64,000 nt of DNA from Amphiscolops sp. MND2022 (GCA_964187785.1 OZ076417.1:51460001-51524000), one strand, 5' to 3'. Shown: positions 12,600 to 52,772, numbered from the stretch's first letter. The notes: generated by a model from the letters alone, not told the origin. A program made the numbers and translations.

Positions 12600-13431
12600 A
12601 CAACTTGAAGTTTCTTTCACACCTTTCTTGAAGTAGATGATTATGCGAGGGAAACAATCAGACTTCGAGGCGTGGTGACAATTTTAATCATCGCCATTCT
12701 CAGTTGCTCTTAGCAGTTCTATCAAAAAAACTCATAATGCAAAGATTCAATCTATCCAAAAGGCTGTTCGAAGGTGATGAAATGAGGTCAACGGCGTCAG
12801 TAGGAGAGGAGGAGTAGGAGGAGGAGGAGGAGGAGGAGGAGGAACAATCAGATGGCTGAGTGTCCGACTGGTCCACAGACACAGAAGAACTGAGACGAAT
12901 TGAGCGAGAAGTTATCTAGAGCCTGGTGCTAATTGGCGGAAGGGTCATGACTGTGGACAACACAGAGGAAGAGATGGTAGCAGGGCCTAGTACAGCCAGT
13001 CGTGTGCGGTCGTTACACCGAAGCTCAGCAAAGTATATTTCGGCGAAAAGCTGTGTTACGCCCCGGTCAAAGAAGATGCCCGGGAAAAGATACAGTTCCC
13101 CCACCGCACGAAAGAGGGCAGTGGAAAGACACTCCAATCAGACAGCAGTCAGATTCGAGTTGCAGAGACGCCTATCTCATCCAAAATACGAAGCCGTACC
13201 AAAAACGTGAATGAATTTTGTTATACAAGGATGTCTGGTTTGCGGCCAATCAAGCGGCCGATCAAGCGGCCGTTCTTAGATGCAATTAAGAGAGAAATGA
13301 GGATTTATACATGCAGATGTTTACCCAGAAAGAAGTGTTGAAGAGGTGACAAGACTCAGGATGGAAGCATATGAAAATGGACTGAAAGCCGGGACTTTCT
13401 TATTCTTAGCACCGGCAGTGTCGCTGACGCC
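12600..13431 (-). pseudogene. Third co-oriented decayed ORF (Ser-rich), interrupted by an LTR
   Basis: Frames GVSDTAGAKNKKVPAFSPF... and GELYLFPGIFFDRGV...SSSSSS...LDRLNL; the coding frame abuts the LTR start at 13432; a (GGA)n tract near 12810-12843 encodes the poly-Ser. Confidence 0.4.
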
Positions 13432-28511: not shown

Positions 28512-29140
28512 CTGAAGGAAATAATCGCATTTGGGAATTTGATTATGGTTCATGATTTCATAAGCAAATCAAAGTTGGACAAAGTAAATTGAAGACAAAT
28601 CGACAAACTCCAATCGACATATTGTATTGATCCATATTGTGAGTCTTGTGTGAATCACTGTTATTAACAACATTGATTCGAAATTTCGAAAAAAAAGGAT
28701 GAAACGCAAAATGCAGACATGTTTTTAGTCGGCGCCTTTTCCCTTAAGGAAAAAAGCCCGACTCTTACAGTGAGTAGTTTTTTTGTTTTTTTTTCAGTTG
28801 ACAATCTCACTCTGAGTGGTCCACTTTTCTTACAATCTTTGTTCACATTTGTTCACATTTGTTCAACTAATTTTCTGAGAAGCAGGGGATCGTGGGTTCG
28901 ATTCTCGCACTAAACCACAAATTTTTTATGCTTCCAAAAGTAGATGCGAGACCAAAGCTTTGTTTCGTTTCGTTTGATTTTTTTCGTTTTTTTTTCGGCA
29001 CTATGCGACTTTTTTTTGGAAATTTTCGGAATCTATCAATTGCATTTTTTTGAAGTTTTCGGTTTGTAAAAACGTTTAATGAGCCTGAATGGCCTTGTTG
29101 CAAAGCAAATATGGTTGAATTAAAACAAACAAAATCAAGT

Positions 29141-29210
29141 GACCGTAGCACGGTCGGTAGGGTACGGGACTCGAAATTTGAAGGTTACCGGTTCGATTCC
29201 CGAAACAGTC
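29141..29210 (+). other. tRNA-like segment inside the BEL 5' LTR (copy at 35925-35994 in the 3' LTR)
   Basis: A-box-like TAGCACGGTCGGTAG, B-box GGTTCGATTCCC and end pairing GACCGT/ACAGTC; resembles a eukaryotic tRNA-Lys as I recall it; degenerate, not a functional tRNA. Confidence 0.65.
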
Positions 29211-29587
29211 AAATATTTGATACCTCTGAAAATAGTAAAATACATTTTTCAAATATTATGCAAAAAACTTGACCTTGCTATCTCGAAGAAAAATCCCTTG
29301 TTTAATAAAGTTTGTAAACAACTCGATGCTCACTTATTGATTTGATTTGATTTGATTTGATATTGTCTAAACATTTGTTTGAAATATCATTCAGTACTAA
29401 TATGATCAAGATAATTGGAGTGTTCGTTTCTCTCTTCTTTTAAACGGACTGTATTTAGCCGATTCAAAAAAAATACAGTTCCTTCATGGTGTCCAGACCA
29501 GAATATATTTGAATATTCGAAACCGTCACCCAAAAATTCATGATAATTTCGGAATAATTATTATCAACTGGACCAAAGAGGGCGTCC

Positions 29588-29878
29588 CCCTCCCCCGACG
29601 ACCCCGCAATCACTCAGAGACTCAGCACCTGTCTCGACAACATTCTCAAACGCACTAACGGCGTGGTCACAACAGCGACCAGTTTGATCCACGAACTAGT
29701 GAGAAGGAGCCCCGAAGACTACAAGAGCTGTGTGTCATTGGCAGTTTCAAGGCTTTCTAGAAGAGTAACAGCAAATTACACAGACCTTCAGAACTACACG
29801 TACTACTTCGTGGCCGGTCCCTGGCTGTCAGTGAAGCTTCTCCGTCTCCTGCAACTGCACCCCCCAATCCACCGATGA
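29588..29878 (+). pseudogene. AP2A: Captured, permuted fragment of AP-2 complex alpha subunit (alpha-adaptin)
   Basis: [34 protein letters not shown]...[25 protein letters not shown] matches the alpha-adaptin trunk; it is preceded in frame by [20 protein letters not shown], which normally follows it. Confidence 0.88.
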
Positions 29879-30106
29879 TCCCCCAACTCGCCAAGAAGAC
29901 CCACGGTCGTTAGTAACAAAAAAAACTGATAAACTATGGAAACTCTTCATTTCTTTTAACTCTTCGAGATAGCAAATTTCTGAAAACTTCAAGATTTGGT
30001 TTGACCCAAAACTTGCCTAAAATGTGAAATTGAATTTTCCAAAGACTGAAAAAAAGTTTCTCATTCGACAAAAAAAGTATAAATTACCATATTGGAAATT
30101 TAATCC

Positions 30107-33100
30107 TTGACTTGGAAAGTAATTATTGCAAAAAAGTACATGGTGTATATAGTTGCCGCCAGTTCTTTGCATTATGCATTGGAAACACTAATCACCGAAG
30201 AAAAAGAACATTTTAAAAACAAAATATATACCATCCCGGGCCTGAGTCTGAATCCAAATACAAAAAACCCTAGAAAGATCGTTCAAAACTTACTTTCGAA
30301 AGTCACTAACAAAAGGTTGGCTATTTCGCAACAAGTGCCTATTATTCAAACAACCAGTACTTCCTCACACACCCCGCAGCCGTCATTTGTACCGCCAACC
30401 TTCACCATGCCGGTGAACCACATCCTACCTAACTTGTCCGCATGGACTTTCCCGAGCCCGACCGTTAATCCGACGCCGATTGTCACAACAGTTTCACCCC
30501 GGACTCCGCCGACGAGTGTGTCTGCCATTCCTGTTGCTCCCGCATCAATCAGCAACGTACATCCGATACCTGTTACCATTGGGGGTACGGTGTATTATGT
30601 TCCACCGTCGACTCTTAGTACCCCCATTGTCCACACAACGCAACCAACCACATCCTTGAGTCCAACAGCTGCAACCTTTGTGCCAACAGGAACTACGCCA
30701 ATACCGCAAGCAAGTACAACCGGGTTTTCTATTCAAGATATTGCTCTTTTGTTAGCTTCAACCAAGAAAGATCATTTGCCCGAGTGGAAGTTAGCACAAT
30801 ACATCGGAGATCCGCTACAATGGCACGAATGGTTCGGTCAATTCAAATATGCGATCGATGCGGCACCACTGACAGACGATGTCAAGCTAACATACCTGAA
30901 AACCCTCGTAACAGGCAAAGCCAAAACTGCAATTTCTGAGTTCGCCTATTGTGGAGCAATGTATAGAGACGCTCTGAAGACTTTAGAACGGAAATTCGGC
31001 CAACCCCAGACTTTACTAACTGCGTACCTGGACAAGTTATCGAACTTCCCACCTGTAAAGATGCACAACAGTGAGAGCATCATCAGTTACTCGGCGAACA
31101 TCTGTTCTCTAGTCGGAGTCTTCCGGTCACTAAATTACCTCCAAGATCTTTCCAGTGCATCACTGCTGGGACAAGCGGTGCAGAAGCTCCCACTGAATAT
31201 GAAGGAAGCATGGTCGATGCACACGGTGAAGCGAACATTGGACAGGCCAACACTGATCGATTTCAACGACTGTCTAAAAGATGAGGCTGAAGCGCACGAG
31301 CGCATGAAGTCAGCGTCCCTCAAGCCAAAAACTGAAGATAGTACCACTACGGCAACCAAGACTAAAACTATCTCCAAAGTTTTTGCCTCGACAGCCTCGT
31401 CCCGCCTACAAAGTTCTAATTCGAAGGGTAAAGTGGAACAACTACCAAAATGTGTCGCCTGTAAAGACAAACATCCGTTGTGGAGATGTCCAGTTTTCAG
31501 AAAAAAGACACCTACGGAGAGAGCAAAAATTGTAGCAGACAATAAGCTCTGTTTTTCATGCTTCCAACCCAATCACTCGTTCCGACAGTGTCCACAGCTT
31601 CGCAAGTGCACCAAAGATGCCTGTGGAAGCTCACACAACACCTTTTTGCACGGAGCTGAGCGGATATTCACAAAAAGTACCGTCAGAAGCAACAAAATGA
31701 AACTAGAAACATCAGGTTGCATTGGTGCAACGACGAGAACCGAGAAACCAGAAGAAAGCTCAGGCATGCCTTCCGTCACAGGCGTGAAAGGATTACTACA
31801 AGTTACGGAAGTCGAACTTCAATCACATGGTAAGTCAGAAAAAGTTTTAGCGCTGTGTGATTCTGCCTGCAGCCATTCCTGGATCTCAGCGAATCTGGCA
31901 AAAAAGTTGAATGTTAATGGTAAACCAACAAAACTCACTGTCCACGGGATTAATTCTAACCAAGTTGTTGACACACAAATGGTAGAGCTCAAGTTGACAC
32001 CCGTTCATTCAGGTGGCTCTTGCTCGCCGTTTGCTGTAAAGCCGTTCGTCAGGAAAGACCTTAGTGTTGGAACTGACACCATAGACGTCGATATGTTGAA
32101 AACAATGTACCCCTACCTCGAACCAATTGCTTTAAAGAAGTACAGTTACACTGATGTTGAAATGATCCTTGGTCAGGATGTGTTTCACTCGATCCGCCCG
32201 CTGGATTATTTTGATTCCGACCGCAAAAATACTCCAGTTGCCGTCCGTTTACCATTGGGCTGGGTTTTGAGTGGGCCACTACCGTCGACCTCGGGTTTCT
32301 TTTCGACTTTTTTTAAAGCTGTTACTTGTGACAACGAATTTGATACCGCACTTGCCGACCAATTACGTAACTGGTACGTTATAGAATCGTACGGAACGTA
32401 TAAACAAGTAGACTCGCGCTCCGCGGCCGATGCGAGGGCGTCGAAAATACTTGACGAAACAACCTACCACGATGGTAGCCTGTACCAAGTGGGCATGTTG
32501 TGGGCAGAAGACGGAAGTAGCTTGCCGAATAACTACTTTTCTGCCTTGGTACAGCTGAAATCGTTGGAGCGACGTTTCAGTAAAGACCCCGAGTTAAATC
32601 AACGCTATGGCAAAACAATCCAAGACGACTTGGATAAAGGGTACATTGAGAAAATCGACAAAACAGACTGCTTCAAAGTTGACAACCCCCGAGAGTGGTA
32701 TTTGCCACACCACCCAGTTATCCACCCACATAAACACGGAAAAGTCCGCAGAGTTTTGAACGGAGCAACTAAATTTCAGGGCCAGTCTCTGAACAACGCC
32801 TTGTTAACCGGACCGGACTTACTGCAAAGTTTAATCCACATTCTAATCCGTTTTCGACAGTTCAAGTATGCCGTTTCCGCCGACATCGAAGGAATGTTTC
32901 TCCAAGTTGGAGTAATTCCTCGCGACCGACCTTCACTTCGTTTCCTGTGGCGGGAAGATCCAACTTCCCAAATAGCTGTATACCAATATTCCAGGCATAT
33001 TTTTGGCTCCAAAGACTCGCCTACGTGCGCCAACTACGCGTTGAAACGTACTGGCACGGACAACCAAAACGACTTTCCGCAGGCAGCTCAAAGTGTCCAC

Positions 33101-35712
33101 CGGAACTTCTACATGGACGACTACTTGGAGTCAAGTCCGGCTGAGGAAGAGGCCAGCAATAAAGCAAAGCATTTAGTCAAACTACTTGCAAGAGGTGGGT
33201 TCAAGCTAACCAAGTTCGTTTCTAACGTGAGCCAGCTGCCAACCAAGCTCGAACCAGACCTCACATCGAACAAAGAAAAAGCAATACCAAGCGCTGAAGA
33301 GTGTTCCCACGTTTTGGGACTCAAATGGAATCACTCATCCGATACTCTCGTAGTGAGTCGAGGCACGAATCCCGACACCACGAAAAGATAACACAAAGGG
33401 TAACGTTGAGCTTAGTTTCAGCGGTGTGCGACCCAATTGGACTCGTAGCTCCCTACACCGTTCAAGCGAGGTTATTGTTGAAAGACATCTGGAGACTAAG
33501 AGGTCAACAATGGGACGATGACCTACCAGACGAGATTGTAACCAAGTTCATTGAATGGAGTGAAGAGTTAACAATGTTGGGCGAAATTGAAATACCAAGG
33601 AGCTACTTCGAAGGATGCGTGGAATCAATGGAGCTCCACATGTTTGGTGATAGCTCACAAGATGTTTTCAGCGCCGTCGCCTTTTTACGAGGAAAGGTAA
33701 CTGCTGCTAAACTCACCAGTACCGAACTAGCTTTCGTCTTCGGAAAAGCTAGGGTGGCACCTATGGAAGCCCTCACGATTCCCAAGCTCGAGTTACAGGC
33801 CTCCTTGCTTGCCGCACGGCTTCGAAAAGAAATTCAAAATGCCCTCACGATAAAGATTGACAAGATTTTCATGTGGACTGACAGCACGACAGTCCTGCAT
33901 TGGCTCCACTCGTTAGAAAAGCAGCCAGTCTTCGTTACAAACCGTGTAGCGGAAATCCTAGAACTCTGTACGGTAGACGAATGGAACTATGTGAAGTCAA
34001 ATGATAACCCGGCAGCTGCTGGGACACGCGGAATTTGTGCCAAGTCACTTCGCGACAGCCCTTGGCTCACCGGACCTTCCTTTCTGAAAACTTCCGACTG
34101 GCCATTTGTACCACCAACAGACGTTAAATTCAAACTGAAAGCAAAAACAACAGACCTTCATGAAACCAATTACACTACTTTCGAAACTGAGACTGCATTA
34201 AGTGCAACAGTAGCTAGCATCGCGTCAACTCTCGAGTGGCAGAAGTATAGCTCGAACGAGAAACTCCTGCGCGTTGTTGCCTACGCTTTGCGTTCACTGC
34301 CGAAAAACGAATGATACAGTTCCATTTCGGGCTCTGTCACTGATCCACAAGAACTAGAGAATGCTCAATGTAGACTTTTCTACCTCGTGCAACATGAGTC
34401 TTTTCCTACAGAGAAGACGAGTCTGTTGAAAGGATCCCCACTCAACAGTACTTCCAAAATCCTTCAATTTTCCCCCTTCATTGGGCCTCAAGGCCTCTTG
34501 CGAGCAACCGGTCGAACGAAACGACTCGAAGTGTCCATTTGTGATGCCAAACACCCAGTTCTACTCGACAGCCGACATCCTGTCACCCGGCTTTTCTTAG
34601 AACATCTTCATCAAACACACTGTCATCAAGGTGTTGACTATTTGATTGCGCTCGTGCAGCAACAGTTCGCTATTGTCAAACTTAGAACAGCCCTGTGTAC
34701 AGTTGTCTCGAAGTGTGTTACATGTCGGAAACGACGAGCTGATACAATCATTTCGATGATGGCAGATCTTCCCCGCGAAAGACTAGCTTACAAAGAACCT
34801 CCTTTCACCAATACTGGCATCGACTACTTCGGGCCTTTCTACGTTTCTGTTAAAAGGTCAACAGAGAAACGATGGGGTTTCCTTTTCACCTGTCTAACTA
34901 CTAGAGCCGTTCATTTCGAAGTTGTCCCTACGATGGACACCAGTAGTTGTGTGATGGGAATAGAGCGCTTCGCTGCCCGCAGGGGCACTCCATCTGTCTT
35001 GTGGTCTGACAATGGGACAAACTTCATCGCTAGTGAAAAAGAATTGTTACAAAATGTATCAGCTTGGAACCAACAAACCTTGTCGGAGACGCTCGTCAAA
35101 AAACGCATCCAATGGAAGTTTTATCCCCCAAGTGCCCCCCACCATGGAGGTGTCTGGGAATGTATTGTAAGGAGTTTTAAACACATCTTCTACGCGATTC
35201 TTGGAAACCGACGACTAACAGATGAGATTTTGACAACTACGTTTTGTTTAGTCGAGCAGAGTCTCAATTCCCGCCCACTCGTACCTGCAAGTTCAGACGC
35301 CACGTATTTGGATGCTCTGACACCAAATCACTTTTTGTTGGGAACGGCGGGTTCCACAATGCCATCTCACCCACGTGCCGACATCGACCACCGTAAGCGT
35401 TACGTCCGTGCTCAAGCATACTTTGATGCTATCTGGGAACGTTGGCTAAGAGAGTACGTCCCTTCTCTTAATCGTCGTTCAAAGTGGTCGACTCCACCAG
35501 AACGAGATATCATCACCGGAGACCTCGCCTGGATTGTCGAGCCGACGAGTCCACGAGGACATTACCCACTTGCACGAGTGGTTAAGTTGAACTACGGAAC
35601 TGACTCAATCGCCCGCTCCGCAGAACTGAAAACAGCAACCGGAAGCCTAGTTCGACCCATTGTCAAACTTGCACCCGTTCTTCCGTCCCCCGACTCTCCC
35701 AATACCTCTTAA
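30107..35712 (+). pseudogene. BEL/Pao gag-pol polyprotein (one frameshift near 33390, one stop near 34312)
   Basis: Gag WHEWFGQF..., three Cys/His knuckles, protease LCDSACS, RT YLPHHPV...FYMDD, RNase H ELHMFGDSS, integrase GIDYFGP...SDNGTNF...GGVWE. Confidence 0.95.
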
Positions 35713-36524
35713 TGTATAACTCTTTCCGTTTTTGTTTTCTCTTGTAATCGTGCCTAACATGAGTAAAATTGTAACATGTACATCGAAAATCTATGTAAAC
35801 CGTTTTCCGTTTAAAAAAGTTTTTGTACGGCCTCAACTTTTACATTTTTTTGCATTCACACCTTCTTAGGACCGGAGGATGTTGCAAAGCAAATATGGTT
35901 GAATTAAAACAAACAAAATCAAGTGACCGTAGCACGGTCGGTAGAGTACGGGACTCGGAATTTGAAGGTTACCGGTTGGATTCCCGAAACAGTCAAATAT
36001 TTGATACCTTTGAAAATAGTAAAATACATTTTTCAAATAATTTGCAAAAAACTTGACCTTGCTATCTCGAAGAAAAATCCTTTGTTTAATAATGTTTGTA
36101 AACAACTCGATGCTCACTTATTGATTTGATTTGATTTGATATTGTCTAAACATTTGTTTGAAATATCATTCAGTACTAATATGATCAAGATAATTGGAGT
36201 GTTCGTTTCTCTCCTTTTTTAAACGGACTGTATTTAGCCGATTAAAAAAACACAGTTCCTTCAGGCCTCGTTTTGAGTTTTTCGGCATTGTGTGACTTTT
36301 TTCAGAAAATACTTTTTTTGAAAAAAAAATAATTTTTTCCAAAAAGACCTTTTAAAAAAATTAATTTTGTTCCAAATGTTTCCAATAGTTGTTCTTTGAA
36401 TATTTTTGAGCCTTAGATATCGCGCCGACTTGAGACGATCTCGTCTTGTTTTTGCATATTTTACCAGTATAGTGAGGTTATACTTTGTATTTTGCGACAG
36501 AGCAACTATTTGAGAAACTTCAAG

Positions 36525-38601: not shown

Positions 38602-41316
38602 TGTAGAAATTTTTGCTAGAGGGTTGGAGAGGAATCCCAATGCTCGATTCTAACAGAAAGGTTTAGTTTTTGGTGAGTAAGTTTCGTTCACGTATCGCGT
38701 ACTCTTTTCACAAGGTCTCTCCAGTGCTCAAGTTTCGACTCCAAAACACTGTGGAAAAGTTACTTGCAATTAATACTCTAATTCTGGAATTATCTGGATA
38801 ATACAAGTCGAAGATTTCCATAGTATATAAACTCTCAACCGAATAACAATCGCACAGCAGATGAATGAATTATATACAATAACTCGACAGAACTGTGCCA
38901 AAATCAAGATTCACTCAAAGATTTCCAAGTCCCGGACTTGTAACTGATTCTCTGCTCTCACTAAGCAGTTAAGTCAAATTCGAAATCGAGTAAGTTTCTT
39001 GCCCGCACACGGCTCAACTTACTCTTAACTTCGTAATCGTTCTTCTGTATCGATTCGGTCTCTTTTTCCCTCCCTAAGATATTTATTCGTCAGCCGCATT
39101 TTTGTTGTACCGATGCCGCTCTTTTATTTGCATGCTTTTAACTTCATGTAGTTCCATTCCTTTTATGGCACGGAAGCGCCCTAGTTATATTTCGGCCAGA
39201 CATACTTCGCCGCCAACGACAAATACTTCAACAAAGGTTGTACAAAGTTCACATTTTATTAATAATTCAAGTCAACCAAGATATTTCCAATATCGAGCCA
39301 ATCGTTTAACGACCTTCAGTTACATGGTTTACATGCTCTCTACGTGTGAGGGGTACTTTTCTATCATCCTAGGTGCAATACATTGCGAATGGTTCCGCCT
39401 GGCCGAAATGCATAAATTATCACTTACAGACGCTGATTTACGTGTTTTATCACAAGTTTCTCTATATGTTCCTGGGTTGCATCTGGAATGACCTTGAGGT
39501 CCATCGGTGACCTTGAAGTTATTTGCCCTCATCCAGTGTTGCTACATGCCAAGTTATATCGTCCTAGCGTCAATAGTCTTCGAGTTACACGATATGCGTA
39601 TGGTTTGTTTACTTAAGGCGGTTACCCCCGTATGGGTTACAAATACGACCTCGTTCACATTAGCAATCAACTACATTCATCATTCCGGTTCGTTTGAGAC
39701 ATTACAAGCCAAGGTCAAATGTCATTTATCGGTCGGGCCCGCGCGTCCGGTCCCGCGTGGCTTAAACAAATATTACTCCGCGCGTGGTGTATCGATCGAT
39801 GTATCTTTCTTGTATATTAGTTAGGGTTACTAGGTGAACATCCTGGGTAAGTTTCATGATCTTAGGGTCATCCGGTGGCTATTTACATAACGTTCCGAGT
39901 TTATTTACTCAGGGTCCGTACTCCTCCTACACGCGTCATAGTGTTCCGAAAACATTCTCAAACGGCTTAATATCATATGGGCTATCGATCCTATATATAA
40001 TACGACTTATTCCGTGCTTGACCGACGAGTTCATAGGGGGGTCGACCTAGGTCACTTATAGCACCTAGGTGCTAATAGCCCGGGACTGGGGGGTCTCGGC
40101 TCGGTTCGGTTTTCATAGGCGAGTACCATAACACCTCAGGTATACGTGTGCCAAATTTCAGCGGGATCGGTTCAGTAGTTCGCCGGGACGGGGGGGTGGT
40201 TTTTTTGGGATGCCCCTCCGGTTCGCATAAAATAAAACTTTGTAAAATTCGCTCGAAGCGGTCGATTCCAATTTGGCTTATTCGAACAATTTCATTGTTG
40301 ACGTCACTCACTACTTCGCTCAAACAATCAAATTTACTCTTTCTATTTTTTTGTTTGCCATCCGCATTTCTATTCTCGCACGCTATTGGATTGCAATATA
40401 GTAATAAATCAATCATGGATCTTAAGAGTTATATCGAACGAGTGGGTTATCTTCGATCCGGTGCCTTGCCTTCCCGTATGACTGCCCGCCAACGGTACAA
40501 TTTCAAGCAACCATGAAAAGGTACTCTCTCGATCACTGTCTTCGCCTCCACTTGGATTCGCGTCGGGTTCTCCGCAGAAAGGAGGTGAGGAGGGAGCTGC
40601 AGTTACTTCATGTGGAGCTCAATTACTGCAACCGCGATGAATTTATCCGTGCTGCTCGGGAGCGCTTCTCCGTTGTGGGTCTCGAGGGTCATTGCCGGGT
40701 TGTTGTCACTTCGTGTGTGGCGCGGCTTGATGACCTCATTGGCTTTCGTGTGGAAGGCCCCATGGTTCACTTTACCGAGGAGAGGAGGAAGGACCTATGT
40801 CGCAAGTTCGGCATCCCTTGGGCAAGGCACTTCCCAACTGTCGATTACCCCTGTTTGGATGTCGCCCGTTTTAAACCGGACACATTGGATACCAGATCTA
40901 CTCGTAACTGCCTCTGCTCAGCCCTGAGCGCTGTTCTTTCTGGGACGCCTGCTCACGCGGGTATACTCGAAGAAATGGTGCGTCAGGAGCGCTCCAGGCC
41001 CAACGGACACCTCGCGGTCCGATTCGACGGTGACCTTCCTGAAGGTGGGGTGGATGATCTGTTCTTCGTTACTGCCACCGACAGGAAGCTACTGGCCCGT
41101 CGGCTTGGCATAATTATTTTTGAATATTTTGTTGGGCGGGGCAATGATCCACCTTGTTGGATTACCTATTCTGGGAATCATCAAGGGCCGGAGCAGGGTG
41201 GCGTTTATCTAGCTGTATGTTGGCTCAAGAAGCGTAAATTATTTCACAGTGTCGCCGTTCTTGGGTTGAAACCGACTGGGGGCTAGTCTTGGGTAAGTTA
41301 AAATATCATTTTCACA
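38602..41316 (-). repeat. 3' LTR (2715 bp)
   Basis: Near-identical (about 98% by eye) to 50116-52772; bounded by the PPT at 41317-41325 and the TSD. Confidence 0.96.
40415..41286 (+). CDS. LTR-encoded antisense ORF, 3' LTR copy (1-nt frameshift near 40511): HHCC-like plus OTU-like
   Basis: MDLKSY...FKQ|MKRYSLD...RNCLCSALSAVLSG...WITYS...GVYL...FHSVAV; the frame is continuous across this point in the other LTR. Confidence 0.75.
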
Positions 41317-41478
41317 TTCTCCCCTACTGGACTCTTATTCTCCCGAATATGGAACAAAAAAATCCGAGACCGTTACGTAATGTCGCGAAAATTGGCTCTA
41401 GTAGAATAAAGTAAAATAAGTAAAATTTGTCTAGGTAAAGTCTTCTATCAGATCCAATCCCGATTCAAGACCCATGCG

Positions 41479-42000
41479 TTACTCGCTCTCTTCGCTGCTG
41501 CTTGCTTCCATTTGCCTTTCCTTCAGTTTAGAGAAGAATTCCGGGTCTTCGGGGTCGAGTCCGTCTGCATTTTCCCATCCTGATTGATCCTGCTCCGACG
41601 GGGCTGACATCCGTTGTTTACGCCTTGCCGGCATTGTCGTCTTAGTTCTTCGCTTTCCCCTTGTCGCCTCTCTCATATTTGGTATAACTTTGTCGGCCGC
41701 TGTCATTCTATCAATTTTCCTCTTCCGGCTCATGTCTTTCCGGGGGTTAGATGACGATTGACGTGGCATCTCGATGTCTTGGGATCTCTGGAGAGGGGCC
41801 ATGGCCTGAGTTATCTCGGTCCTTGTGGAGCGAAGGTCCCCATCGCTGCCCACCTGTCCATAAGGTGTGCGGCCGTCCCATTCCGGCCTTGTACGGTTCT
41901 CCAGGCTCGTTCTTTCCCCCGTTCGTGCCGCGGCGAGCGTTCCAAATTAGGACCCATTTGCGGTCTCTTCGTCGTTTCCAGGTGAGGTCATATAGTTCAT
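41479..42000 (-). CDS. Accessory ORF between env and the PPT, basic/NLS-rich (one in-frame TAA at codon 18)
   Basis: ACCATGA start at 42000 in frame with the 41479-41853 ORF; SRKRKIDR, GKRRTK and ARRKQR clusters; acidic tail; upstream CTAAC...TTTTCAG acceptor at 42094. Confidence 0.65.
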
Positions 42001-42216
42001 GGTGCGTGTCGACTCCAGTTTTCCAGAGTTACGTTATTATTGAATGTAAGGATTGTTGATATGCATTCACTTATTAGTTTTACTTTCGCTAGACTGAAAA
42101 TAGTTAGAAATTCTATGTTTATTTACAGGTTAACAAGTTGGCATCAAACCGGTTATCATTATGACAAAAGTTTCATACATTTTCCCTTTCGATTTAGGTA
42201 TAAAGCTACCCTTTTT

Positions 42217-44413
42217 TCAGTTTTGTCGTGGAAACGACACGTGCTGTGATTTTTTCATTATTTCATCAGTCTTCAACGAATTGGTTGGGGCGCCAGAGCT
42301 CCCACTGGGAGTATCATCTTTCACTTCCAGTCGACCGCCTTCATGTCCTACTGCGCTTTCTTTCATCTCGACCTGGTTGGGTTCATCAAGCGTACTGTCG
42401 CATGTCTGACTGCCTATCACATTCCTGTTTCCTTGAGCACGTTTGCAGGGGCATGGGGTGAGCATTACTGCGAAGAATTGTCGGGGTCCCATGTACGTCA
42501 TCAGTCCTCCACCGGTCAGAAGTAAGATCGTCAATAAGGTCAGCAGGACCGTACCGACCACTGGGTGTGCCACTGACTGCCATCGCATAGGCGCATGTCG
42601 CTTTAGGAGCGACTCCGCAAAAGGGCGTGCGATTTCCTTCAGTTCCTCTTCGGCTACTGTTCCTTCAGGGAGTTTATTCAAGTCCATCTTCATTCCCTTC
42701 AAGATGTCTTCATGGACCGCAGTTTGGAAATCTTTTGGAATATAGTAGCTTGCTTCATCTCGTTGGATCTCCTTCACCAGGTTGAAAATCGTAGTCAAGA
42801 CTGCGTTTTGGTTTATGGTTATATGCAGTCCTGAGTTGTGGTGGCATCGGTGTGGGTCAGGGTTCAGTACCAGGCTTCCGTCGGGTGTTTCAATGCGTCC
42901 GCCACACACCGGTCTGAGTAGACAACTTTTGCACCCTGCAATCCTCTCCCCTTCTATCGCATATCCACCGGTGTAGTTGTATAGCTGGTAATCGACGCTG
43001 TTTGCTGTTAACACATAAGTCGAGTCGCCCAAGTACTCGGCCAAGGGTCCCTCAGGTAAGACATGAGGACTTACTACTTCTTGACATAGCCACTGGCCGT
43101 AGGCACAATCTCAGTCGCGATGTTCCTTGACAGTGGGTGCTGAGCTCCTGCTCTGTCGCTTCCGCGAAGCTGTCCCTCCTTTCAGACTGCAAGAATTGGT
43201 TCTGCTTAAAAACATATCGGGTGGCCGTGTTCCCTTCGTCGATCGGTTGGGGTATCGGTACTGCCTTGTACACACGGTAGAGGCCACCCGCGTAGTGCAT
43301 GGGGATGTTTATCAGCACGATGATGGTGTTCTCCGTCATAACTACATTTTCTACTAATTCGAATCAGTAATACGCCGATAATTCGGCCCGAGGAATAGCT
43401 TCTTGCATTCAGTCCACTCGGATGTTGTTTAAAAGTTTCAGTAAAGCTTCTGGTGGAACCAGTGTGGCCGGGATGAAACCCTTCGTCAATGAGGCCAATG
43501 CATCATCCAAGATATACCCAAAGTTGTGAAGTCCGACTTGATAATCCAGAAATTCAGTCAACAAGGTGTCGAAAAGCTTCGTATGGTTTATAAGGACGGT
43601 CGTGAAATGTACAGACTCCTGAAATTCATTCTCCCATTTGGCACAAATTGTCGAGCCGTCCACTGCTCCCGGAGACAAGTTATCTTTGAGCTTCGTGAAT
43701 AAGTCCCTGATCTGTTGGAAATTGGCGTTAGAGTCTTTAGCGAGAATTTTCAGCCTCCCCTGGGTTCGATTCAGGGCATGTCCCAAGAGGTGAATTCTCT
43801 CTCCCGATTCCAGCGTCACAGTCCTTGCCATGTCATCTAAATCGCTCAGTCGATGAGCTAACTCATCGTACTTTCTGGAGTCGCCACACATGAAGGTGAA
43901 CGGACAGAACCCGTCGATTAGTTTGGGGAGTAGGGTTATCGCGGCCGCTGTTGCTGCCGCCCCGGCGACTACCACGGTCAGTGCTCCCCGCTTGGTTCTT
44001 CCTTTGTGTAGTTCCCTATGCACAATGAACGTTTGAGCCCGTTCGCGCATCTCTGTCAAATCATCCTTCACTTCCAGGAAGACTTTCTCAACGTTCTTCA
44101 GCCCAATATATGGTATATTGAATAATGCGTGCGTCAAGCTTGCGTTACCACAGAAATCTGTTCCTTTCGCTCGGCCCCAGGCTTTCCGAAAATTATACTG
44201 AAACTCTTGAAATGCCAGGTCCAAGTGGGTGACGTTCAAATTGGGTAGTGGTAGGAAAGGTATCGACACCCAAGCTGCCTCGAGTGAGCTAGCTACAATA
44301 ACTGGAATCTCGGGTACAAAAACTACTTAAGCAGTGTTGTTATATTCCAAAGTTTTTGCTGTTGGGAAACCCCAGCAAACCAGCAAAATTAGCGAAAGGG
44401 TTTTTAATATCAT
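42217..44413 (-). pseudogene. env: Envelope / class I fusion protein (disrupted)
   Basis: Signal peptide MILKTLSLILLVCWGFPTA, furin site RTKR followed by hydrophobic GALTVVVAGAAATAAAITLL, heptad-like region, Cys-rich region, TM VVGTVLLTLLTILLL; stops near 44329 and 43409, frameshift near 43050. Confidence 0.88.
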
Positions 44414-45151
44414 CCTGTTTTCGAATTCAATAGTTTAACAAGTGATGCCAACTTATGAACCTTAAGGGTTACACTATTTATTCATAATGTCTCGCCCATA
44501 CCAGACGGTCCATCATTCTTTCAATCAAAGGTGAGTCTACCCATAATTCCAGACGACTAAGGTATGTTTACTTTCGGTATTGACAATTGCATCATTCCAT
44601 GTACGTTTTTCTATCTACCTTGTGTGCTCACCTTTGAAGTCAGTGAATAGGTCATTTCACCCAATGGTATTAGAAAAACAAACACCATGGGTGCGTGGGG
44701 GTTTAATCATAGTGTGGGTCAAAAAAAAACAATAGAATTCTAGGAAACTCAATGGGAAGAATGCATAGCCCAGTGAAAATTTCAACAAGGGGGGTTTAAA
44801 GAGTTAGTTTTTAGTTTGTGATCCTCTTACCGGTTCAGTCATCAATTCCGAACCTTTGCGTGGGTTTACGGCTGCGTTGCAGGTAGCGCTGTTGGTCTTC
44901 AGCTTGCTGGGTTGGGGGGTCATCTAGGGTTTCGGGATTCACCGCGTTGTCTGCGACGTCTTCCACGGGTTCGATGAGGGTGTGGGTTTCTCCTTCTGAC
45001 GGTTGGGTTGACCAATCTGCTCGCATGGGGGTTGTGTGGCTGCATCCCGTAACACTAACTGGTTCATCTGGTGTCTCCTTACGCCCAGTGTCGTTTTCTT
45101 CTTCAAACATTGACCCCAGCTGGTAGTCTTGGTCGAGCCAACGGTCTTGCT

Positions 45152-48100
45152 TCATTCTGTCGTACTTCCGGACGGTCTGCCCAGCGATACGACGGGCGTC
45201 AGCCTCTGTCTTAGCAGCACTAACTGCCGGCTTGGAGGGTCTTCGTGGTCTAGTTCGTCCACAACATCCTCCTCATCCACCTCGTCGAAGAAATTCTTTG
45301 ATCGATACGGGTTCGGTCGGCAGGGTATCTCGTCAACTGGTTCGCTCACAAAGGGTTTTAACATATTGAAATGGACGATCTTCCATTTGTCTTCTTTCCC
45401 CTTTTTCGCGGTCTTGTAGTTGACTTCTGACGTCTGTTCCAAGATCTCCCATGGCCCCTCCCACGGTAGGTAGAATTTTCTCGACTTGGCTTTGTGGGGG
45501 GACATCAGCCAGACTTTCTCCCCTTCTGCATAGTTCCGCCCGAAGACCTTCTTGTGGTAGCGGTCTTTTTGACGTTCCTGATTAACTCCCAGGTGACTTC
45601 TAGCTGCGCTATGGGCCTCGTGGAACTTGCGATCCAGGTCGTCCACGAACTCGGTACGGTCCATCAGCTCGTCGTGTGGCCGGGGATAAAACAGGTCGAT
45701 CGGGTATTGACACTCTTGGCCATAAACCAGCGCAAATGGGGTAGCTCTTGTTGTCCGGTGAACAGTTGTGTTGTAGACGAAATTCAAGTATGGGAGGACC
45801 TCGTTCCAGACTTGTGGGTCATCACTACAGTATTTTGAGACCATGTCTGCAATCACTCGGTTAAAACGCTCCACTTGGCCATTCCCCTGCGGGTGGTAGG
45901 GGGACGTCCTCGTTTTGTCTATTTTCAATAACTGACACATTTCTTGTATCACCCGACTTCCGAAGTTCGTCCCTTGGTCCGTATGCAGACAGTCGGGGAC
46001 TCCAAAGTGCAGAATCCAGCCCGTAACTATAGCTTCCACTACATCCTGTGCTTCGGTCTTCACCAAGGGCACTGTGACTACAAACTTCGTGAAACAGTCG
46101 GTCATCGCTAGGATGTACTTGGCCCCCGTCTTTGTTGCTTTAGTCACCGGGCCCAAGATGTCCGCGGCTACGGTGTGGAAACGAATTCCCACTTTTCGAG
46201 GCTGTAATTCAGCGACGTTTTTCTTCCCAGCCACGGACCGCGCGGCGCAGGGTCTTTTTTGAGATCCGTTTTTCTACGTCCTTTCTCATCGATGGCCACC
46301 AAAACCTCTGTCGAATTTAGAGGAGAGTCTTCTCAAGCGCGAAGTGTCCACCACTCAACGGGGAAGAATGCAGTTGTTCCAGTATCTCCTTTCGGGACTC
46401 TAATGGGACAATTAACTGCACTTGATCTTGTCCACTCTCTGCACTGGCCCAATGACGATATAGCAACCCATTTTTGACAAAGAGCTGCCGCCAGAGGTTC
46501 CAGAACGCTAGAGCTTCTTCTCCTGAAGACACTGCTTCTTTCTGGGTAGCCACCCTGTTGCCAAGTTCATTCTGGTTCGGTTTTGTCTTCGCATCAGCCC
46601 ACTCCAGTACTGCTCGAATTGCTGGGTCCGCCCATTGTGCTTTCAGGATGTCATCAGGCGAGGATTTCCATGTTATTTGGATCTCGTCTGGGTTGGGGAC
46701 CTCAGTTTCGGTTGCAACCCTGTCGGAAACGCTCAGTTCTTTTAGTGCCAGTTCCATCGTCAGAGGTTCCGGACAGGAACCCATTGGCTCCTCTTTCTCT
46801 CCAGGTAGCCATTCCGGTTCGTCGGAACTCATTCGAGACAGCCCGTCTGCATTTCCATGTTTGTCGCCGCTCCGATGGATCACTTTGAATTTGTATACCT
46901 GGAGCGTCTGTAGCATCCGAAACGTCTGGCCGTCTGCATTCTGCCGAAATAGCCATCGCAAGCTGGCGTGGTCGGTGCGGACCAAGAATTCCGTGCCCCA
47001 TATGTACGGTCTGAACCACTTCAGGGCCTGCACTACCGCTAAGGCTTCTCGCTTCGTGGTTGAGTACATGCTTTCGGTCTTTGATAGCACCCTGCTTGCA
47101 AACACGAGTGGTCTTTCGTCTCCATCGATCACGTTGGACAGCACTGCACCCAAACTCACGTTACTGGCATCCGTGTCCACCACAAACAGGCTTTTGAAGT
47201 CGGGGTACTGAAGCATGGGTGCAGTAGTGAGCTCCAATTTCAGTCGTTCAAAAGCTACTTGGCAAACTTCATTCCACTCAAAACAATCATTCTTCTTCGT
47301 GACTGCGTGTAGAGGTCTAGCTATTTCTGCAAAGTTTCGAATAAATCGGCGATAGTAACTGCAGAAGCCCACAAATGACCTCACGTCTGTCACGTTTTTC
47401 GGCACCGGCCACTCTTTCACTGCTTCAACCTTCGCTGGGTCGGGAGATGTGCCGTCAGCTTGAATGGTGTGCCCCAGGTAGTCTACTTGGAAAAACTTGC
47501 ACTTCTTGGGCTTCAGGCGAAGGTTTGCTTTCCTAAGCGTTTCGAAGGTTATCTTCAGATTCTGGGTGTGTTGTTCTATATCGCCGCTATACAAGAGGAC
47601 GTCGTCCAGAAAAATCAGTACTCCCTTGTAGATATACTGGACGAACAAGTTGTTCATCAGCCTCTGGAAAGTACCGGGGGCGTTGGTCAGTCCAAAAGGC
47701 ATCCTCACATATTCATAGAGTCCACCATCTGGCGTGACGAAGGCAGTTTTGTGTCGGTCTTCAGGTGCTACTGGCACTTGCCAGTACCCGCTAGCTAAGT
47801 CCAGGGTGGAAAAGAGCTTTGCACCGTTCAATGCGTCGAAGGTCTGTTCGATCTTCGGAATAGGGAAGGCGTCTTTTACAGTAATTTCGTTGAGCCTTTT
47901 ATAAACCACGCAGAACCTCCAACTGCCGTCTTTCTTCTTGGCTAACACGATTGGGGCGCTGTACGGGCTGTTGGAGTGCTGTATGACCCCTCGTTTTAGC
48001 ATGTCCTCTACTTCCTGTTGCACAATCGGGAGCTTCGCGGGAGATATCCGGTGTGGGGGTATTTTGATGGGGTCACTGTCTCCCGTTTCGATGTGGTGTT

Positions 48101-49031
48101 CTGTTACGTCTGTGCAACCCAATTCGTCATCGTTGAGTGCAAAGACGTCTCTGTATTCGGTCACTAAAGCTTTCAGGACTTCTCGTTCCGGTCCTGTGAC
48201 GTTCTCGGCGGAGAGTGCCAAGATCTTCTCCACGTCTTGCTCCAGCGTCGGGAAGCTTGTAGCTGAGGTTACCTCACTACGGGGCTCTTGGACCACTCTA
48301 ACACTATCGGATTCCTGTGTTTCCGTGACACCTAATTGTTGGTTCGGTGGTCCAACCTCTCCAACTGAAACTTTAGATTCCTGTCGAAAGTCGTCTTCGT
48401 TGCTTTTGTCTGCATTAGAAATCCCCGCCGGCTCCTCTGGTTCCGTTGCCCTGAGCTCTCGGATACGACGAATCTGCTCGACACGGAAACCCACGATGGA
48501 ACCTTCTCCTGGTGCAGACCAAAATTGCTTGGTGTTGAAATCCAAGTTTGATTTGTGGTGATTCATAAATGCGAGGCCAAGTATGATAGTTGGATTCACA
48601 TCGTGCATTACCAAAAAGTTTACTTCTTCGTCTATTGCTCCAACGAGTATTCTAACTCGGGCTCGTCCGACGACGGCCATTTGCCTCCCATCTGCTGTCT
48701 CCAGGCGTCCGTCATACTTCTCCAGTTTCGGGAAACGATCCAGTTCATAGGTGTTTAAGTTTATTAAGTTTACTGATGCTCCAGTGTCTAGCAGTGCGTC
48801 AACTTCTCTTCCAGCCACCTTGACTTTTGTGACAGCGCTGAGTGTCCCACCTTCCAGAGTCGAGCTTGAGTTTTCTGGGTCTGGATCGTTAGAACTGAGG
48901 GAACGTGCTTTTTCTGCCAAAGCCTCGGCCTTCGCTTTGACTAGGTAGGGGATATGACGAAAATTTACAGGTTTGAATTCGGCCGGGACAAAACCTTCCT
49001 TCACTGGTCTCCCGGCCCCTCGGAGTTTAAA
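45152..49031 (-). pseudogene. pol: Pol (protease, RT, RNase H, integrase), broken in the integrase zinc-finger region near 46300
   Basis: LLDTGAS; MPFGL...IFLDD; TDAS...REALAV...TDH; HTVAADILGP...TDQGTNF...VERFN. Confidence 0.95.
48988..49031 (-). promoter_or_regulatory. Candidate -1 ribosomal frameshift signal at the gag-pol overlap
   Basis: T TTA AAC heptamer in the gag frame, 7-nt spacer, then a GGCCGGGA...TCCCGGCC stem; pol is in the -1 frame. Confidence 0.75.
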
Positions 49032-50021
49032 GCCTCCGACTTCTTTGGGCATACTCGCGCAAAGTGGCCCTCCTCACCACATTCATAACAAGCTAGGGTC
49101 TGACGCGATGACTGTTGTTTGTTCCCGCTACCACCCTGGTTGTTGAAGTTGTTTCCGTAGCGAGTAGCACCATCATTTGGGTTGAAGAACTTCTTTTCAC
49201 TGGTGGGGGTCACTGCTGCTTGTGGGTACGGCATCGGAAGCACAGAAGACATGAACTTCGACATCATGTTAGTCAAGTTATTCATTGCTTGACTGACTTC
49301 ATTCATCTGCTGTTTCATCTCACTCATCTCGGGGTTGCTGCTGCTGTTCGTTGTTGCCTCTTGAGTCACCCTGAGTGCTGCCACTCGCTTCGTGGACCTA
49401 TTCCGTATGGATTTCGAGATAGTCTCCAGGTCAATAGTCCTGTTGATGGTGTCGGTGAATGACCTAGTGTCTTCTCTCAACAAGACCTCGAGCAGATCGG
49501 GGTCCGACAACCCTTCGATGAATCGCTCTCGAAACTGCTCATCCCGTTGTTCCGCCTCCAGAGTGCGAAACACTTGCATCCCCACGCTTCGAACTCGGCA
49601 AGCAAAGTTCCTCAGGCTCTCGCCTTCCTTCTGTACTAAAGCTTTAAACTCACTCCTGCCCATCCTGTCGTTCCTCAGAACACCAAGAGCTCTGTCCAGA
49701 TGCTCAAAGGGGTTTTCAAGGGTCGGGGCCGGCTCGCCTTTGGTGTCTTGTTTCAGCGCTGCAGGTGCGGCGTGAAACTCATCCAACGCGTGGCCGTTGA
49801 GGCAAACTGGTAGAGCGTTGATTGCTTGAATCTGGGTCCATCTGTTCGCTTCTGCTACGGCAGTAAAGTGGGATTTCCATTGTACCCAATTCGGATAAGC
49901 ATTCGAGGGGAATCTATCCGGCCTGAGAGCACCATTGTTGAAAATCCGATTCTGCTGGTCGTTCAGCACCTGCCCCTGCAATGGTCACCTCCAGTAGATC
50001 TCGTCTCTCGTCTTGATTCAT
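49001..50021 (-). CDS. gag: Gag with a CCHC knuckle (probable 1-nt frameshift shortly after the ATG at 50021)
   Basis: WVQWKSHF...AEANRW, FRERFIEGL, CYECGEEGHFARVC. Confidence 0.9.
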
Positions 50022-50115
50022 CGTGTTGTCAGGGGATAACAGCTAAGTCCCAGTAAAACAATTCCAAAATAACAGCGATACAGAACTACGAAAATTGCCC
50101 AACCAGGAGCGCCAC

Positions 50116-52772
50116 TGTAGAAATTTTTGCTAGAGGGTTGGAGAGGAATCCCAATGCTCGATTCTAACAGAAAGGTTCAGTTTTTGGTGAGTAAGTTTCG
50201 TTCACGTATCGCGTACTCTTTTCACAAGGTCTCTCCAGTGCTCAAGTTTCGACTCCAAAACACTGTGGAAAAGTTACTTGCAATTAATACTCTAATTCTG
50301 GAATTATCTGGATAATACAAGTCGAAGATTTCCACAGTATATAAACTCTCAATCGAATAACAATCGCACATCAGATGAATGAATTATATACAATAACTCG
50401 ACAGAACTGTGCCAAAATCAAGATTCACTCAAAGATTTCCAAGTCCCGGACTTGTAACTGATTCTCTGCTCTCACTAAGCAGTTAAGTCAAATTCGATAT
50501 CGAGTAAGTTTCTTGCCCGCACACGGTCTCTTTTTCCCTCCCTAAGATATTTATTCGTCAGCCGCATTTTTAATGCACCGATGCCGCTCTTTTATTTGCA
50601 TGCTTTTAACTTCATGTAGTTCCATTCCTTTTGTGGCACGGCAGCGCCCTAGTTATATTTCGGCCAAACATACTTCGCCGCCAACGACAAATACTTCAAC
50701 AAAGGTTGTACAAAATTCACATTTTAATAATAATTCAAGTCAACCAAGATATTTCCAATATCGAGCCAATCGTTTAATGACCTTCAGTTACATGGTTTAC
50801 ATGCTCTCTACGTGTGAGGGGTACTTTTCTATCATCCTAGGTGCAATACATTGCGAATGGTTCCGCCTGGCCGAAATGCATAAATTATCACTTACAGACG
50901 CTGATTTACGTGTTTTATCACAAGTTTCTCTATATGTTCCTGGGTTGCATCTGGAATGACCTTGAGGTCCATCGGTGACCTTGAAGTTATTTGCCCTCAT
51001 CCAGTGTTGCTACATGCCAAGTTATATCGTCCTAGCGTCAATAGTCTTCGAGTTACACGATATGCGTATGGTTTGTTTACTTAAGGCGGTTACCCCCGTA
51101 TGGGTTACAAATACGACCTCGTTCACATTAGCAATCAACTACATTCATCATTCCGGTTCGTTTGAGACATTACAAGCCAAGGTCAAATGTCATTTATCGG
51201 TCGGGCCCGCGCGTCCGGTCCCGCGTGCCTTAAACAAATATTACTCCGCGCGTGGTGTATCGATCGATATATCTTTCTTGTATATTAGTTAGGGTTACTA
51301 GGTGAACATCCTGGGTAAGTTTCATGATCTTAGAGTCATCCGGTGGCTATTTACATAACGTTCCGAGTTTATTTACTCAGGGTCAGTACTCCTCCTACAC
51401 GCGTCATAGTGTTCCGAAAACATTCTCAAACGGCTTAATATCATATGGGCTATCGATCCTTTATATAATACGACTTATTCCGTGCTTGACCGACGAGTTC
51501 ATAGGGGGGTCGACCTAGGTCACTTATAGCACCTAGGTGCTAATAGCCCGGGACTGGGGGGTCTCGGCTCGGTTCCGTTTTCATAGGTGAGTACCATAAC
51601 ACCTCAGGTATACGTGTGCCAAATTTCAGCGGGATCGGTTCAGTAGTTCGCCGGGACGGGGGGTGGTTTTTTTTGGGATGCCCCTCCCGTTCGCATAAAA
51701 TAAAACTTAGTAAAATTCGCTCGAAGCGGTCGATTCCAATTTGGCTTATTCGAACAATTTCATTGTTGACGTCACTCACTACTTCGCTCAAACAATCAAA
51801 TTTACTCTTTCTCTTTTTTTTGTTTGCCATCCGCATTTCTATTCTCGCACGCTATTGCATTGCAATATAGTAATAAATCAATCATGGATCTTAAGAGTTA
51901 TATCGAACGAGTGGGTTATCTTCGATCCGGTGCCTTGCCTTCCCGTATGACTGCCCGCCAACGGTACAATTTCAAGCAATCCATGAAAAGGTACTCTCTC
52001 GATCACTGTCTTCGCCTCCACTTGGATTCGCGTCGGGTTCTCCACAAAGAGGAGGTGAGGAGGGAGCTGCAGTCACTTCATGTGGAGCTCAATCACTGCA
52101 ACCGCGATGAATTTATCCGTGCTGCTCGGGAGCGCTTCTCCGTTGTGGGTCTCGAGAGTCATTGCCGGGTTGTCGTCACTTCGTGTGTGGCGCGGCTTGA
52201 TGACCTCATTGGCTTTCGTGTGGAAGGCCCCATGGTTCACTATACCGAGGAGAGAAGGAAGGACCTATGTCGCAAGTTCGGCATCCTATGGGCAAGGCAC
52301 TTCCCAACTGTCGATTACCCCTGTTTGGATGTCGCCCGTTTTAAACCGGACACATTGGATACCAGATCTACTCGTAACTGCCTCTGCTCAGCCCTGAGCG
52401 CTGTTCTTTCTGGGACGCCTGCTCACGCGGGTATACTCGAAAAAATGGTGCGTCAGGAGCGCTCCAGGCCCAACGGACACCTCGCGTGACCTTCCTGAAG
52501 GTGGGGTGGATGATCTGTTCTTCGTTACTGCCACCGACACGAAGCTACTGGCCCGTCGGCTTGGCATAAATATCTTTGAATATTTTGTTGGGCGGGGCAA
52601 TGATCCACCTTGTTGGATTACCTATTCTGGGAATCATCAAGGGCCGGAGCAGGGTGGCGTTTATCTAGCTGTACGTTGGCTCAAGAAGCGTAAATTATTT
52701 CACAGTGTCGCCGTTCTTGGGTTGAAACCGATTGGGGGCTAGTCTTGGGTAAGTTAAAATATCATTTTCACA
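50116..52772 (-). repeat. 5' LTR (2657 bp)
   Basis: Copy of 38602-41316 with 46-nt and 14-nt deletions; adjacent to the PBS at about 50097-50114. Confidence 0.96.
51884..52742 (+). CDS. LTR-encoded antisense ORF, 5' LTR copy (14-nt deletion near 52486)
   Basis: Intact N-terminus (FKQSMKRY; LHVELNHCNRD); frameshifted after GHLA and resumes as DDLFFVTATD. Confidence 0.75.

Follow-up and report, generated by a model that had tools for sequence, protein, structure and literature searches.

Gypsy-type LTR retrotransposons in the genome of an Amphiscolops species (about 1.07 Gb) carry a frame antisense to gag, pol and env that is a real accessory gene of the retroelement, and its product combines an integrase-like N-terminal module with a C-terminal domain of predicted OTU fold. 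The antisense OTU gene occurs in two LTR superfamilies, gypsy and BEL/Pao, and sequence comparison shows that close gypsy elements exchange it as a cassette. We favour, with moderate confidence, the reading that it encodes an accessory deubiquitinase driven from the 3' LTR, whose integrase-like module would anchor it on DNA, on chromatin or on the integration complex and which would deubiquitinate element proteins or silencing marks.

The host element and its antisense gene

The window, that is, the whole stretch of 64,000 nucleotides that was analysed, contains one gypsy element with a copy of the antisense gene in each LTR:

38602-52772, minus strand: env-bearing gypsy element
38602..41316, minus strand: 3' LTR, 2715 nt, with TG..CA ends
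40415..41286, plus strand: antisense gene in U3, 3' LTR copy (ATG 40415, stop 41284-41286)
41317-41328: polypurine tract, adjoining the 3' LTR
41479..41946, minus strand: orfX, candidate second accessory frame between env and the 3' LTR
42217..44326, minus strand: env-like gene, fragmented in the window copy
45152..49073, minus strand: pol (protease, RT, RNase H and integrase, from Pfam), fragmented in the window copy
49001..49984, minus strand: gag with one zinc knuckle (Pfam)
50116..52772, minus strand: 5' LTR, 2657 nt, with a TGG-starting, primer-binding-like site adjoining
51884..52742, plus strand: antisense gene, 5' LTR copy (ATG 51884)

The element is flanked by a 5-bp target duplication (ATAGT), and its two LTRs, both with TG..CA ends, show 42 mismatches over 2654 aligned bases. 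A first-pass annotation, made from the window alone, had described a frame opposite to gag-pol-env in both LTRs, ending 30 nt from the LTR edge and differently damaged in each, and had concluded that an ORF of about 290 aa was intact at insertion. Mapping of the LTRs and frames agrees with this description. The 3' LTR copy has lost 1 nt at about 40511, and an in-frame Met at 40513 opens 257 codons that include the entire OTU domain; in the 5' LTR copy a 14-nt loss after 52485 (placed at about 52486 in the annotation) makes the frame stop at 201 codons, short of the catalytic His. Intact natural copies of the proposed length are present elsewhere in the genome (L031, 290 aa, and L033, 291 aa).

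A protein search of the genome with the antisense gene (217 candidates, 135 scored) returns 140 matches. Twenty-eight are full-length and open, meaning that they span query residues <=6 to >=280 with no stop, and four further copies have a single stop. The genes fall into three types, A (that of the window), B and C, all 279-291 aa long; type A copies are 74-98% identical to the query, and the three types are mutually 34-39% identical. All seven elements retrieved whole have the gene in both LTRs opposite to gag-pol-env, and the antisense frame is kept in 8/8 gypsy elements examined (the window's and seven others). Relatives that have no close match here are found in other assemblies (the best match of P0040 in this genome is 29%), and scans of viral contigs with alignment A4 and of metagenome contigs with alignment A1 found no relative.

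The sense side of the element has features of its own. The env-like frame is 749-797 codons long and open in four of seven relatives, with a weak match to Baculo_F that falls under the cut-off (E 0.0012). The orfX frame, which has no match in Pfam, is 167-190 codons long and open in all six close relatives, with its motifs, a basic stretch and an acidic tail; it is probably a second accessory gene, perhaps for a nuclear regulator. The presumed U5 (38602-39880) is unusually long at about 1.3 kb, is 92-97% alike even between elements with differing U3 cassettes, and contains two short plus-strand frames of 137 and 108 codons, one of them without a Pfam match.

Selection on the antisense frame

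Nei-Gojobori counts, obtained with a custom script, cover the 36 pairs from nine intact copies. In every pair pN is lower than pS (Fisher p <= 3e-4), and dN/dS is 0.09-0.20 in the five type A pairs with finite dS, which are unsaturated to moderate. The first-pass annotation had staked its reading on purifying selection across family copies, and this is what the counts reveal. Among type B pairs the ratio is 0.09-0.13 in three that are near saturation and 0.46 in one; pairs between types are mostly saturated. For two type A pairs with dS < 0.6, the ratio is 0.065 and 0.089 over the OTU part, against 0.27 and 0.26 over the N-terminal part; elsewhere in the gypsy elements the values are 0.045-0.29 for gag and 0.05-0.22 for pol. 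As a control in one pair, the other five frames carry 10-22 stops; thus, the antisense frame is not the shadow of a sense gene, and a chance frame is likewise ruled out.

The same counts can be used to judge whether the gene is a functionless passenger, a remnant of a Ginger1-like transposon or of a host gene caught in the LTR. Such an origin would suit the broken state of both window copies, the short derived elements (described at the end) that retain only about 46 codons of it, and a domain order equal to that of a Ginger1 transposase minus its core, as described in PMC2836005. Against it are the low dN/dS of the type A pairs, open frames of equal length at only 34-39% identity, and start and stop positions that are kept. 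Barring wrong alignments, the selection test refutes this reading, and we give it very little credence.

The OTU domain

The C-terminal part of the protein is mapped as follows:

40731..41283, plus strand: linker helix and OTU-fold domain, residues about 105-290 (model, structure matches and alignment)
40909-40911, plus strand: codon of catalytic Cys166
41245-41247, plus strand: codon of His278

The first-pass annotation had recognized an OTU pattern here and named fold prediction as the test that could refute it. An AlphaFold model built from a 9-row alignment has pLDDT 82, low only at residues 105-107 and 202-219, and comparisons with it uphold the assignment. In VIA, the seven best of 48,161 solved chains are OTU domains (nairovirus OTUs, OTUD3 and OTUD1), with Z 9.8-11.0 and rmsd 3.6-4.0 A over 121-131 residues. 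Foldseek also ranks OTUs first with probability 0.97-1.0, yet at E 1.2e-3 or worse, and the Atlas feature search with residues 115-290 returns OTU clusters at 0.92 (19 of 30 hits). At the level of sequence, the Pfam OTU family (PF02338, gathering score 23.3) matches none of the nine intact gypsy proteins and none of the window frames, and a search of solved structures with alignments A1 and A2 yields nothing under E 1.7. A viral fold library gives one match at E < 0.001, to a fish herpesvirus protein; the other rows are weak, and several are foamy-virus Pol.

In the model, Cys166 is preceded by Asn and opens a helix (166-176), and His278 lies on the last strand (276-287). The first-pass annotation had noted a catalytic Cys, with Thr in place of the usual upstream Asp, and had left the register of the His ambiguous. 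Counting only full-length open copies, with partial and broken ones excluded, the Cys is kept in 28/28 and the His in 26/28, the exceptions having a changed C-terminus and an Asn, respectively; the alignment now fixes the His as His278. The residue at Cys-3, usually the Asp of the oxyanion loop, is Thr, Ser or Pro in all 28 gypsy copies, and position His+2, usually the polar third residue of the triad, is taken by a hydrophobic residue (Val, Ile, Leu or Met) in every one of them. A further Cys two residues past Cys166 and several other residues are equally invariant; thus, conservation alone fails to single out the dyad. Judged by these alignments, the protein resembles a dyad OTU in its predicted active site and is not a canonical member of PF02338.

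Absence of both the Cys-3 Asp and the third triad residue might mean that the protein is a pseudo-enzyme or adaptor, in which the OTU fold binds ubiquitin or another partner with little or no cutting. It would then regulate the element through its integrase-like part, for instance by covering the LTR ends or the integrase core, by damping or steering integration, or by HBZ-like regulation of transcription. Such a role would fit the existence of outside relatives, in clusters of up to 35 members, that stop past the linker helix at 146-151 aa, as well as the foamy-virus intasome, which is held together by the inner integrase subunits and their N-terminal domains according to the description in PMC3185587. 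However, both the Cys and the His persist in the gypsy types, the outside relatives and the BEL types alike, the OTU part is under stronger selection than the N-terminal part in unsaturated pairs, and the short relatives may be broken or spliced genes. We regard an adaptor as unlikely. A predicted complex of the OTU domain with the genome's own ubiquitin, folded without an alignment, scores 0.09, the mark being 0.34, and speaks neither for nor against binding.

If the protein is an active OTU-fold protease, it could act on something other than ubiquitin: on a ubiquitin-like modifier (NEDD8, SUMO or one resembling ISG15), on a restriction factor of the host, or on Gag, Pol or Env of the element itself. 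The nearest folds include the nairovirus OTUs, for which ISG15 is a substrate, and tymovirus PRO (Z 6.5), a dyad enzyme of broad specificity that also cuts its own polyprotein, both as described in PMC3968130. However, both carriers have an aspartic protease region of their own for polyprotein processing (in gypsy, from Pfam), and ubiquitin is the default substrate of the OTU fold. Another substrate seems to us a doubtful proposition. For the deubiquitinase that we favour, a precedent in active-site composition is the PRO of turnip yellow mosaic virus, which is described in PMC3968130 as active without the oxyanion residue and the third catalytic residue and as shielding its polymerase from degradation.

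The integrase-like N-terminal module

The first part of the protein consists of extension helices with a Y-P-Y/F-Y pattern, followed by a zinc-binding helical bundle:

40415..40730, plus strand: integrase-like N-terminal module, residues 1-105 (Pfam, model, VIA and alignment)
40609, plus strand: codon of zinc-site residue His66
40714, plus strand: codon of zinc-site residue Cys101

The resemblance to an integrase zinc module claimed in the first-pass annotation is clear at the level of fold and weak in Pfam. In VIA, residues 2-105 match the integrase N-termini of Ty3 (24-135, Z 9.8) and foamy virus (8-100, Z 9.3), and the MLV integrase is matched over residues 1-112 at Z 5.2. In Pfam, five of nine proteins match Integrase_H2C2 (PF17921, gathering score 25.5) weakly and none passes, the best scoring 20.1 bits (E 7e-4); the outside relative P0062 does pass the gathering score. 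The annotation had also reported the last Cys as missing. This is true of the window's subfamily, type A, in which the fourth zinc ligand is Arg in all seven full-length copies, and fails elsewhere: the 21 full-length type B and C copies all have H-H-C-C. The motif that it quoted, LHVELNHCN, belongs to the 5' LTR copy, whereas the 3' LTR copy, to which it was ascribed, has Tyr at the second zinc ligand as well. Alignment A5 shows a Y..P..F..Y pattern that extends over about 40 residues and agrees, by description only, with the YPYY motif in PMC2836005.

A homologous gene in BEL/Pao elements

Searching the genome with the Pfam OTU family gives nine matches, four of which are frames of the same two-part build with the textbook OTU motif, D-G-N-C ... 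H-x-D. When one of these BEL-type genes is used as the query (141 candidates, 127 scored), 109 matches are returned, including 12 open frames, nearly identical to one another, of 343-344 codons. In all 12 loci checked, the opposite strand has a BEL/Pao integrase region immediately downstream, and LTR pairs are seen in seven of the eight loci taken with wide flanks; examples are at G000:C2:11130756 (L110/L150), C3:92749144 (L101) and C13:37626748 (L155). These carriers are about 7 kb long with LTRs of 246-312 nt, and the antisense gene sits between pol and the 3' LTR; in one subfamily it begins about 50 nt inside the 3' LTR and is oriented toward pol. Two elements examined have a single open gag-pol frame of 1739-1741 codons.

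Aligning the gypsy and BEL profiles with HHalign gives a probability of 98.5% (96.9% with a small alignment) and E 2e-15. The 255 columns begin at the first Met, stop just short of the His and place the catalytic Cys of the two genes opposite each other. Three of six BEL proteins pass the PF02338 gathering score (27.2-27.5 bits) and the other three fail. Cys-3 is Asp in one BEL subfamily and Ala, Pro or Ser in others, and His+2 is Asp in six of seven BEL rows. The BEL protein model is poor (pLDDT 63) with middling fold matches (Z 5-6); Ty3 and foamy-virus integrase N-termini head its fold list too (Z 6.1), and the Atlas feature search with it gave no usable hit. In a 14-row tree the BEL and gypsy genes form separate groups with a long branch between them, so that the sharing is either old or from a common donor.

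Three other sequences came up alongside. The window has a BEL/Pao element of its own next to the gypsy element (29096-36263, LTRs about 95% alike), in which neither the gypsy-type nor the BEL-type OTU gene is matched. A 2244-codon open frame with a canonical OTU domain (L098, G000:C13:25891363) is possibly a Helitron-type protein, and an OTU-bearing frame on a small contig of deviating codon make-up (L096, G000:C1676) may come from outside the host genome.

Cassette exchange between close elements

Six close gypsy elements can be grouped by pairwise identity in two ways. By Pol, C2, C10 and C13 stand against C8, C6 and C3a (96-99% identical within groups, about 90% between), and env follows Pol. 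By the antisense gene, C2, C8 and C6 stand against C3a, C10 and C13, and all four combinations of Pol and gene are present. In an AU test with these groups, the distant seventh element being excluded, the Pol tree and the gene tree reject each other's grouping (p 7e-8 and 9e-5). Elements with 98-99% identical Pol can thereby carry versions of the gene that are only about 37% identical; between C2 and C13, for instance, the figures are 99.1% for Pol and 37% for the accessory protein. The DNA of this pair is 92-97% identical in the first 1500 nt of the LTR; identity then falls to 35-56% across most of the following 1.8 kb and is back at 97% in env. The diverged 1.8 kb comprises the upstream region, the antisense gene, the flank of the polypurine tract and most of orfX, so orfX is partly swapped along with the cassette. 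Promoter side, gene and poly(A) signal would on this evidence form one unit, exchanged by recombination.

Parallel diverged versions swapped on near-identical backbones may often typify genes in conflict with the host. The swap can also be explained by plain template switching between coexisting subfamilies, with no arms race.

Candidate expression signals

Motifs that could serve expression of the two strands are listed below:

39900..39905, minus strand: candidate sense poly(A) signal AATAAA, at the same LTR position in 7/7 close elements
39992..40000, minus strand: candidate TATA box (TATATA) of the sense promoter, at the same LTR position in 5/7 close elements
40299..40306, no strand: CRE-like palindrome TGACGTCA, about 115 nt before the ATG, between the divergent units
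41405..41410, plus strand: candidate antisense poly(A) signal AATAAA (motif only), in the internal region just past the polypurine tract

The recurring positions of the sense TATA-like box and AATAAA place the antisense gene in U3. A TGACGT core lies upstream of the gene in all eight elements, a count made without a shuffle control. A plus-strand AATAAA is found within 200 nt interior to the inner edge of the 3' LTR, also in 8/8; shuffled A-rich sequence yields one in 4-17% per element, and the eight elements are kin. Since this poly(A) signal is inside the element, only the 3' LTR copy would form a complete unit. Antisense transcription would thus start in the 3' LTR, diverge from the sense promoter and end inside the element.

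Relation to known systems

The closest parallel in build is provided by the Ginger1 transposases, in which a YPYY motif, H2C2, DDE and GPY/F are followed by OTU or Ulp1 (PMC2836005). As in the Ginger1 proteins of that description, a candidate YPYY-like motif, an N-terminal H2C2 and a C-terminal OTU are here united in one protein of an animal mobile element; unlike them, the antisense protein has no DDE core or GPY/F and is about 290 rather than 500-800 aa long (PMC2836005). Only about 60 residues separate its zinc module from the OTU Cys, terminal inverted repeats are absent, and the gene is a separate antisense gene of LTR elements. Compared by description, then, the protein resembles a Ginger1 transposase minus its catalytic core. 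A search with alignment A2 for longer fused relatives (565-2000 aa) found none among 8000 candidates, which is weak evidence, and hence no Ginger1 parent is identified. We do not favour an origin in which the element duplicated the N-terminus of its integrase: the carriers' integrases score only 8-18 bits against the N-terminal profile, over the zinc part alone. With this profile a neighbouring BEL integrase scores 32 bits.

Other systems share single features. Viral OTUs (nairovirus vOTU, tymovirus PRO and arterivirus PLP2) have the fold and the order of Cys before His, and PRO likewise lacks the oxyanion residue and third catalytic residue; however, those described in PMC3968130 form part of the polyproteins or polymerases of RNA viruses. 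None of them is joined to the N-terminus of an integrase or has a retroelement as carrier, and identity is 9-16%. HTLV-1 HBZ and HIV-1 ASP are, as presented in PMC10186651, antisense genes of env-bearing elements with a 3' LTR promoter, which here we infer; in contrast, the present gene has an enzyme fold, and its gypsy version lies wholly in U3, hence in both LTRs, and is swapped as a cassette. The plant gypsy elements Grande (gene23) and Retand (TRP28) have a conserved antisense frame near the 3' LTR, and the BEL/Pao version shares its position between pol and the 3' LTR, but the products of the plant frames have unassigned or DNA-binding roles, and neither account uses the word 'protease' in its main text (PMC7264820, PMC11963269). 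Helitrons are also mobile elements with an OTU domain, although in PMC2836005 it is described as part of a rolling-circle transposon protein without an integrase module. Within the full-text literature, the scope of which leaves Repbase reports, subscription papers and preprint supplements outside, we found no OTU gene in an LTR element. The parts are known; what appears to be new is how they are arranged, the location of the gene in U3, its exchange and its occurrence in two LTR superfamilies.

OTU domains on transposons were noted in 2010, together with the guess that ubiquitin matters in transposition (PMC2836005). As tails of large transposases such domains are hard to test, whereas here the domain belongs to a small, separate gene under selection. 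This gene has many recent copies and comes in several natural versions, carried by backbones that are nearly identical and by two unrelated LTR superfamilies. Whether retroelements oppose the ubiquitin system with an enzyme of their own, and on which substrate, becomes testable with one soluble protein. The gene also brings an enzyme fold into the small set of accessory genes that are LTR-encoded or antisense, and it shows that gypsy and BEL/Pao elements have exchanged genes or drawn on a common donor.

Proposed mechanism

As to expression, catalysis, substrate, benefit and a Ginger1-like origin, the following scheme is proposed. A frame within U3 is copied to both LTRs at each retrotransposition. 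The gene would be transcribed from the 3' LTR, away from the element's own promoter, and its product would be an OTU-fold cysteine isopeptidase with a predicted Cys-His dyad, most likely a deubiquitinase. The coreless integrase-like module would tether the enzyme, and ubiquitin would be removed either from marks that send element proteins to degradation or from those involved in silencing or signalling against the new copy. The role as an anti-silencing or chromatin factor suggested in the first-pass annotation may be one form of this.

A wider proposal, possible in our judgement and held tentatively, is that animal LTR retroelements of two superfamilies, env-bearing gypsy and BEL/Pao, share a mobile cassette for an integrase-tethered deubiquitinase that arose when a Ginger1-like transposase lost its core, and that deeply diverged versions persist together and are swapped between near-identical backbones as each counters a different ubiquitin-dependent host defence or serves whole families in trans. 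If this holds, a retroelement enzyme strips ubiquitin as counter-defence, and it would offer a way to find out which ubiquitin marks limit retrotransposons in a genome of invertebrate type.

Minor observations

The short outside relatives (P0053, P0056, P0060, P0051 and P0062, all 146-151 aa) consist of the N-terminal module and linker helix with no OTU domain, and the P0053 cluster has 35 members; they may represent a distinct short version of the gene, or else be broken or spliced.

An older pair of direct repeats in the window (1926-3351 and 13423-14911, 80% identical, 11.5 kb apart) probably represents the LTRs of a decayed element; tblastn with the antisense gene gave no match in it.

The short derived elements (L152, at G000:C8:18824941-18833434, and L023-L027) have a repeat spacing of 6.4 kb and LTRs of 2085 nt. 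They keep the LTR, with the antisense gene cut to about 46 codons, lack pol and contain a 789-codon frame with weak likeness to gag, which is compatible with an antisense product borrowed in trans.
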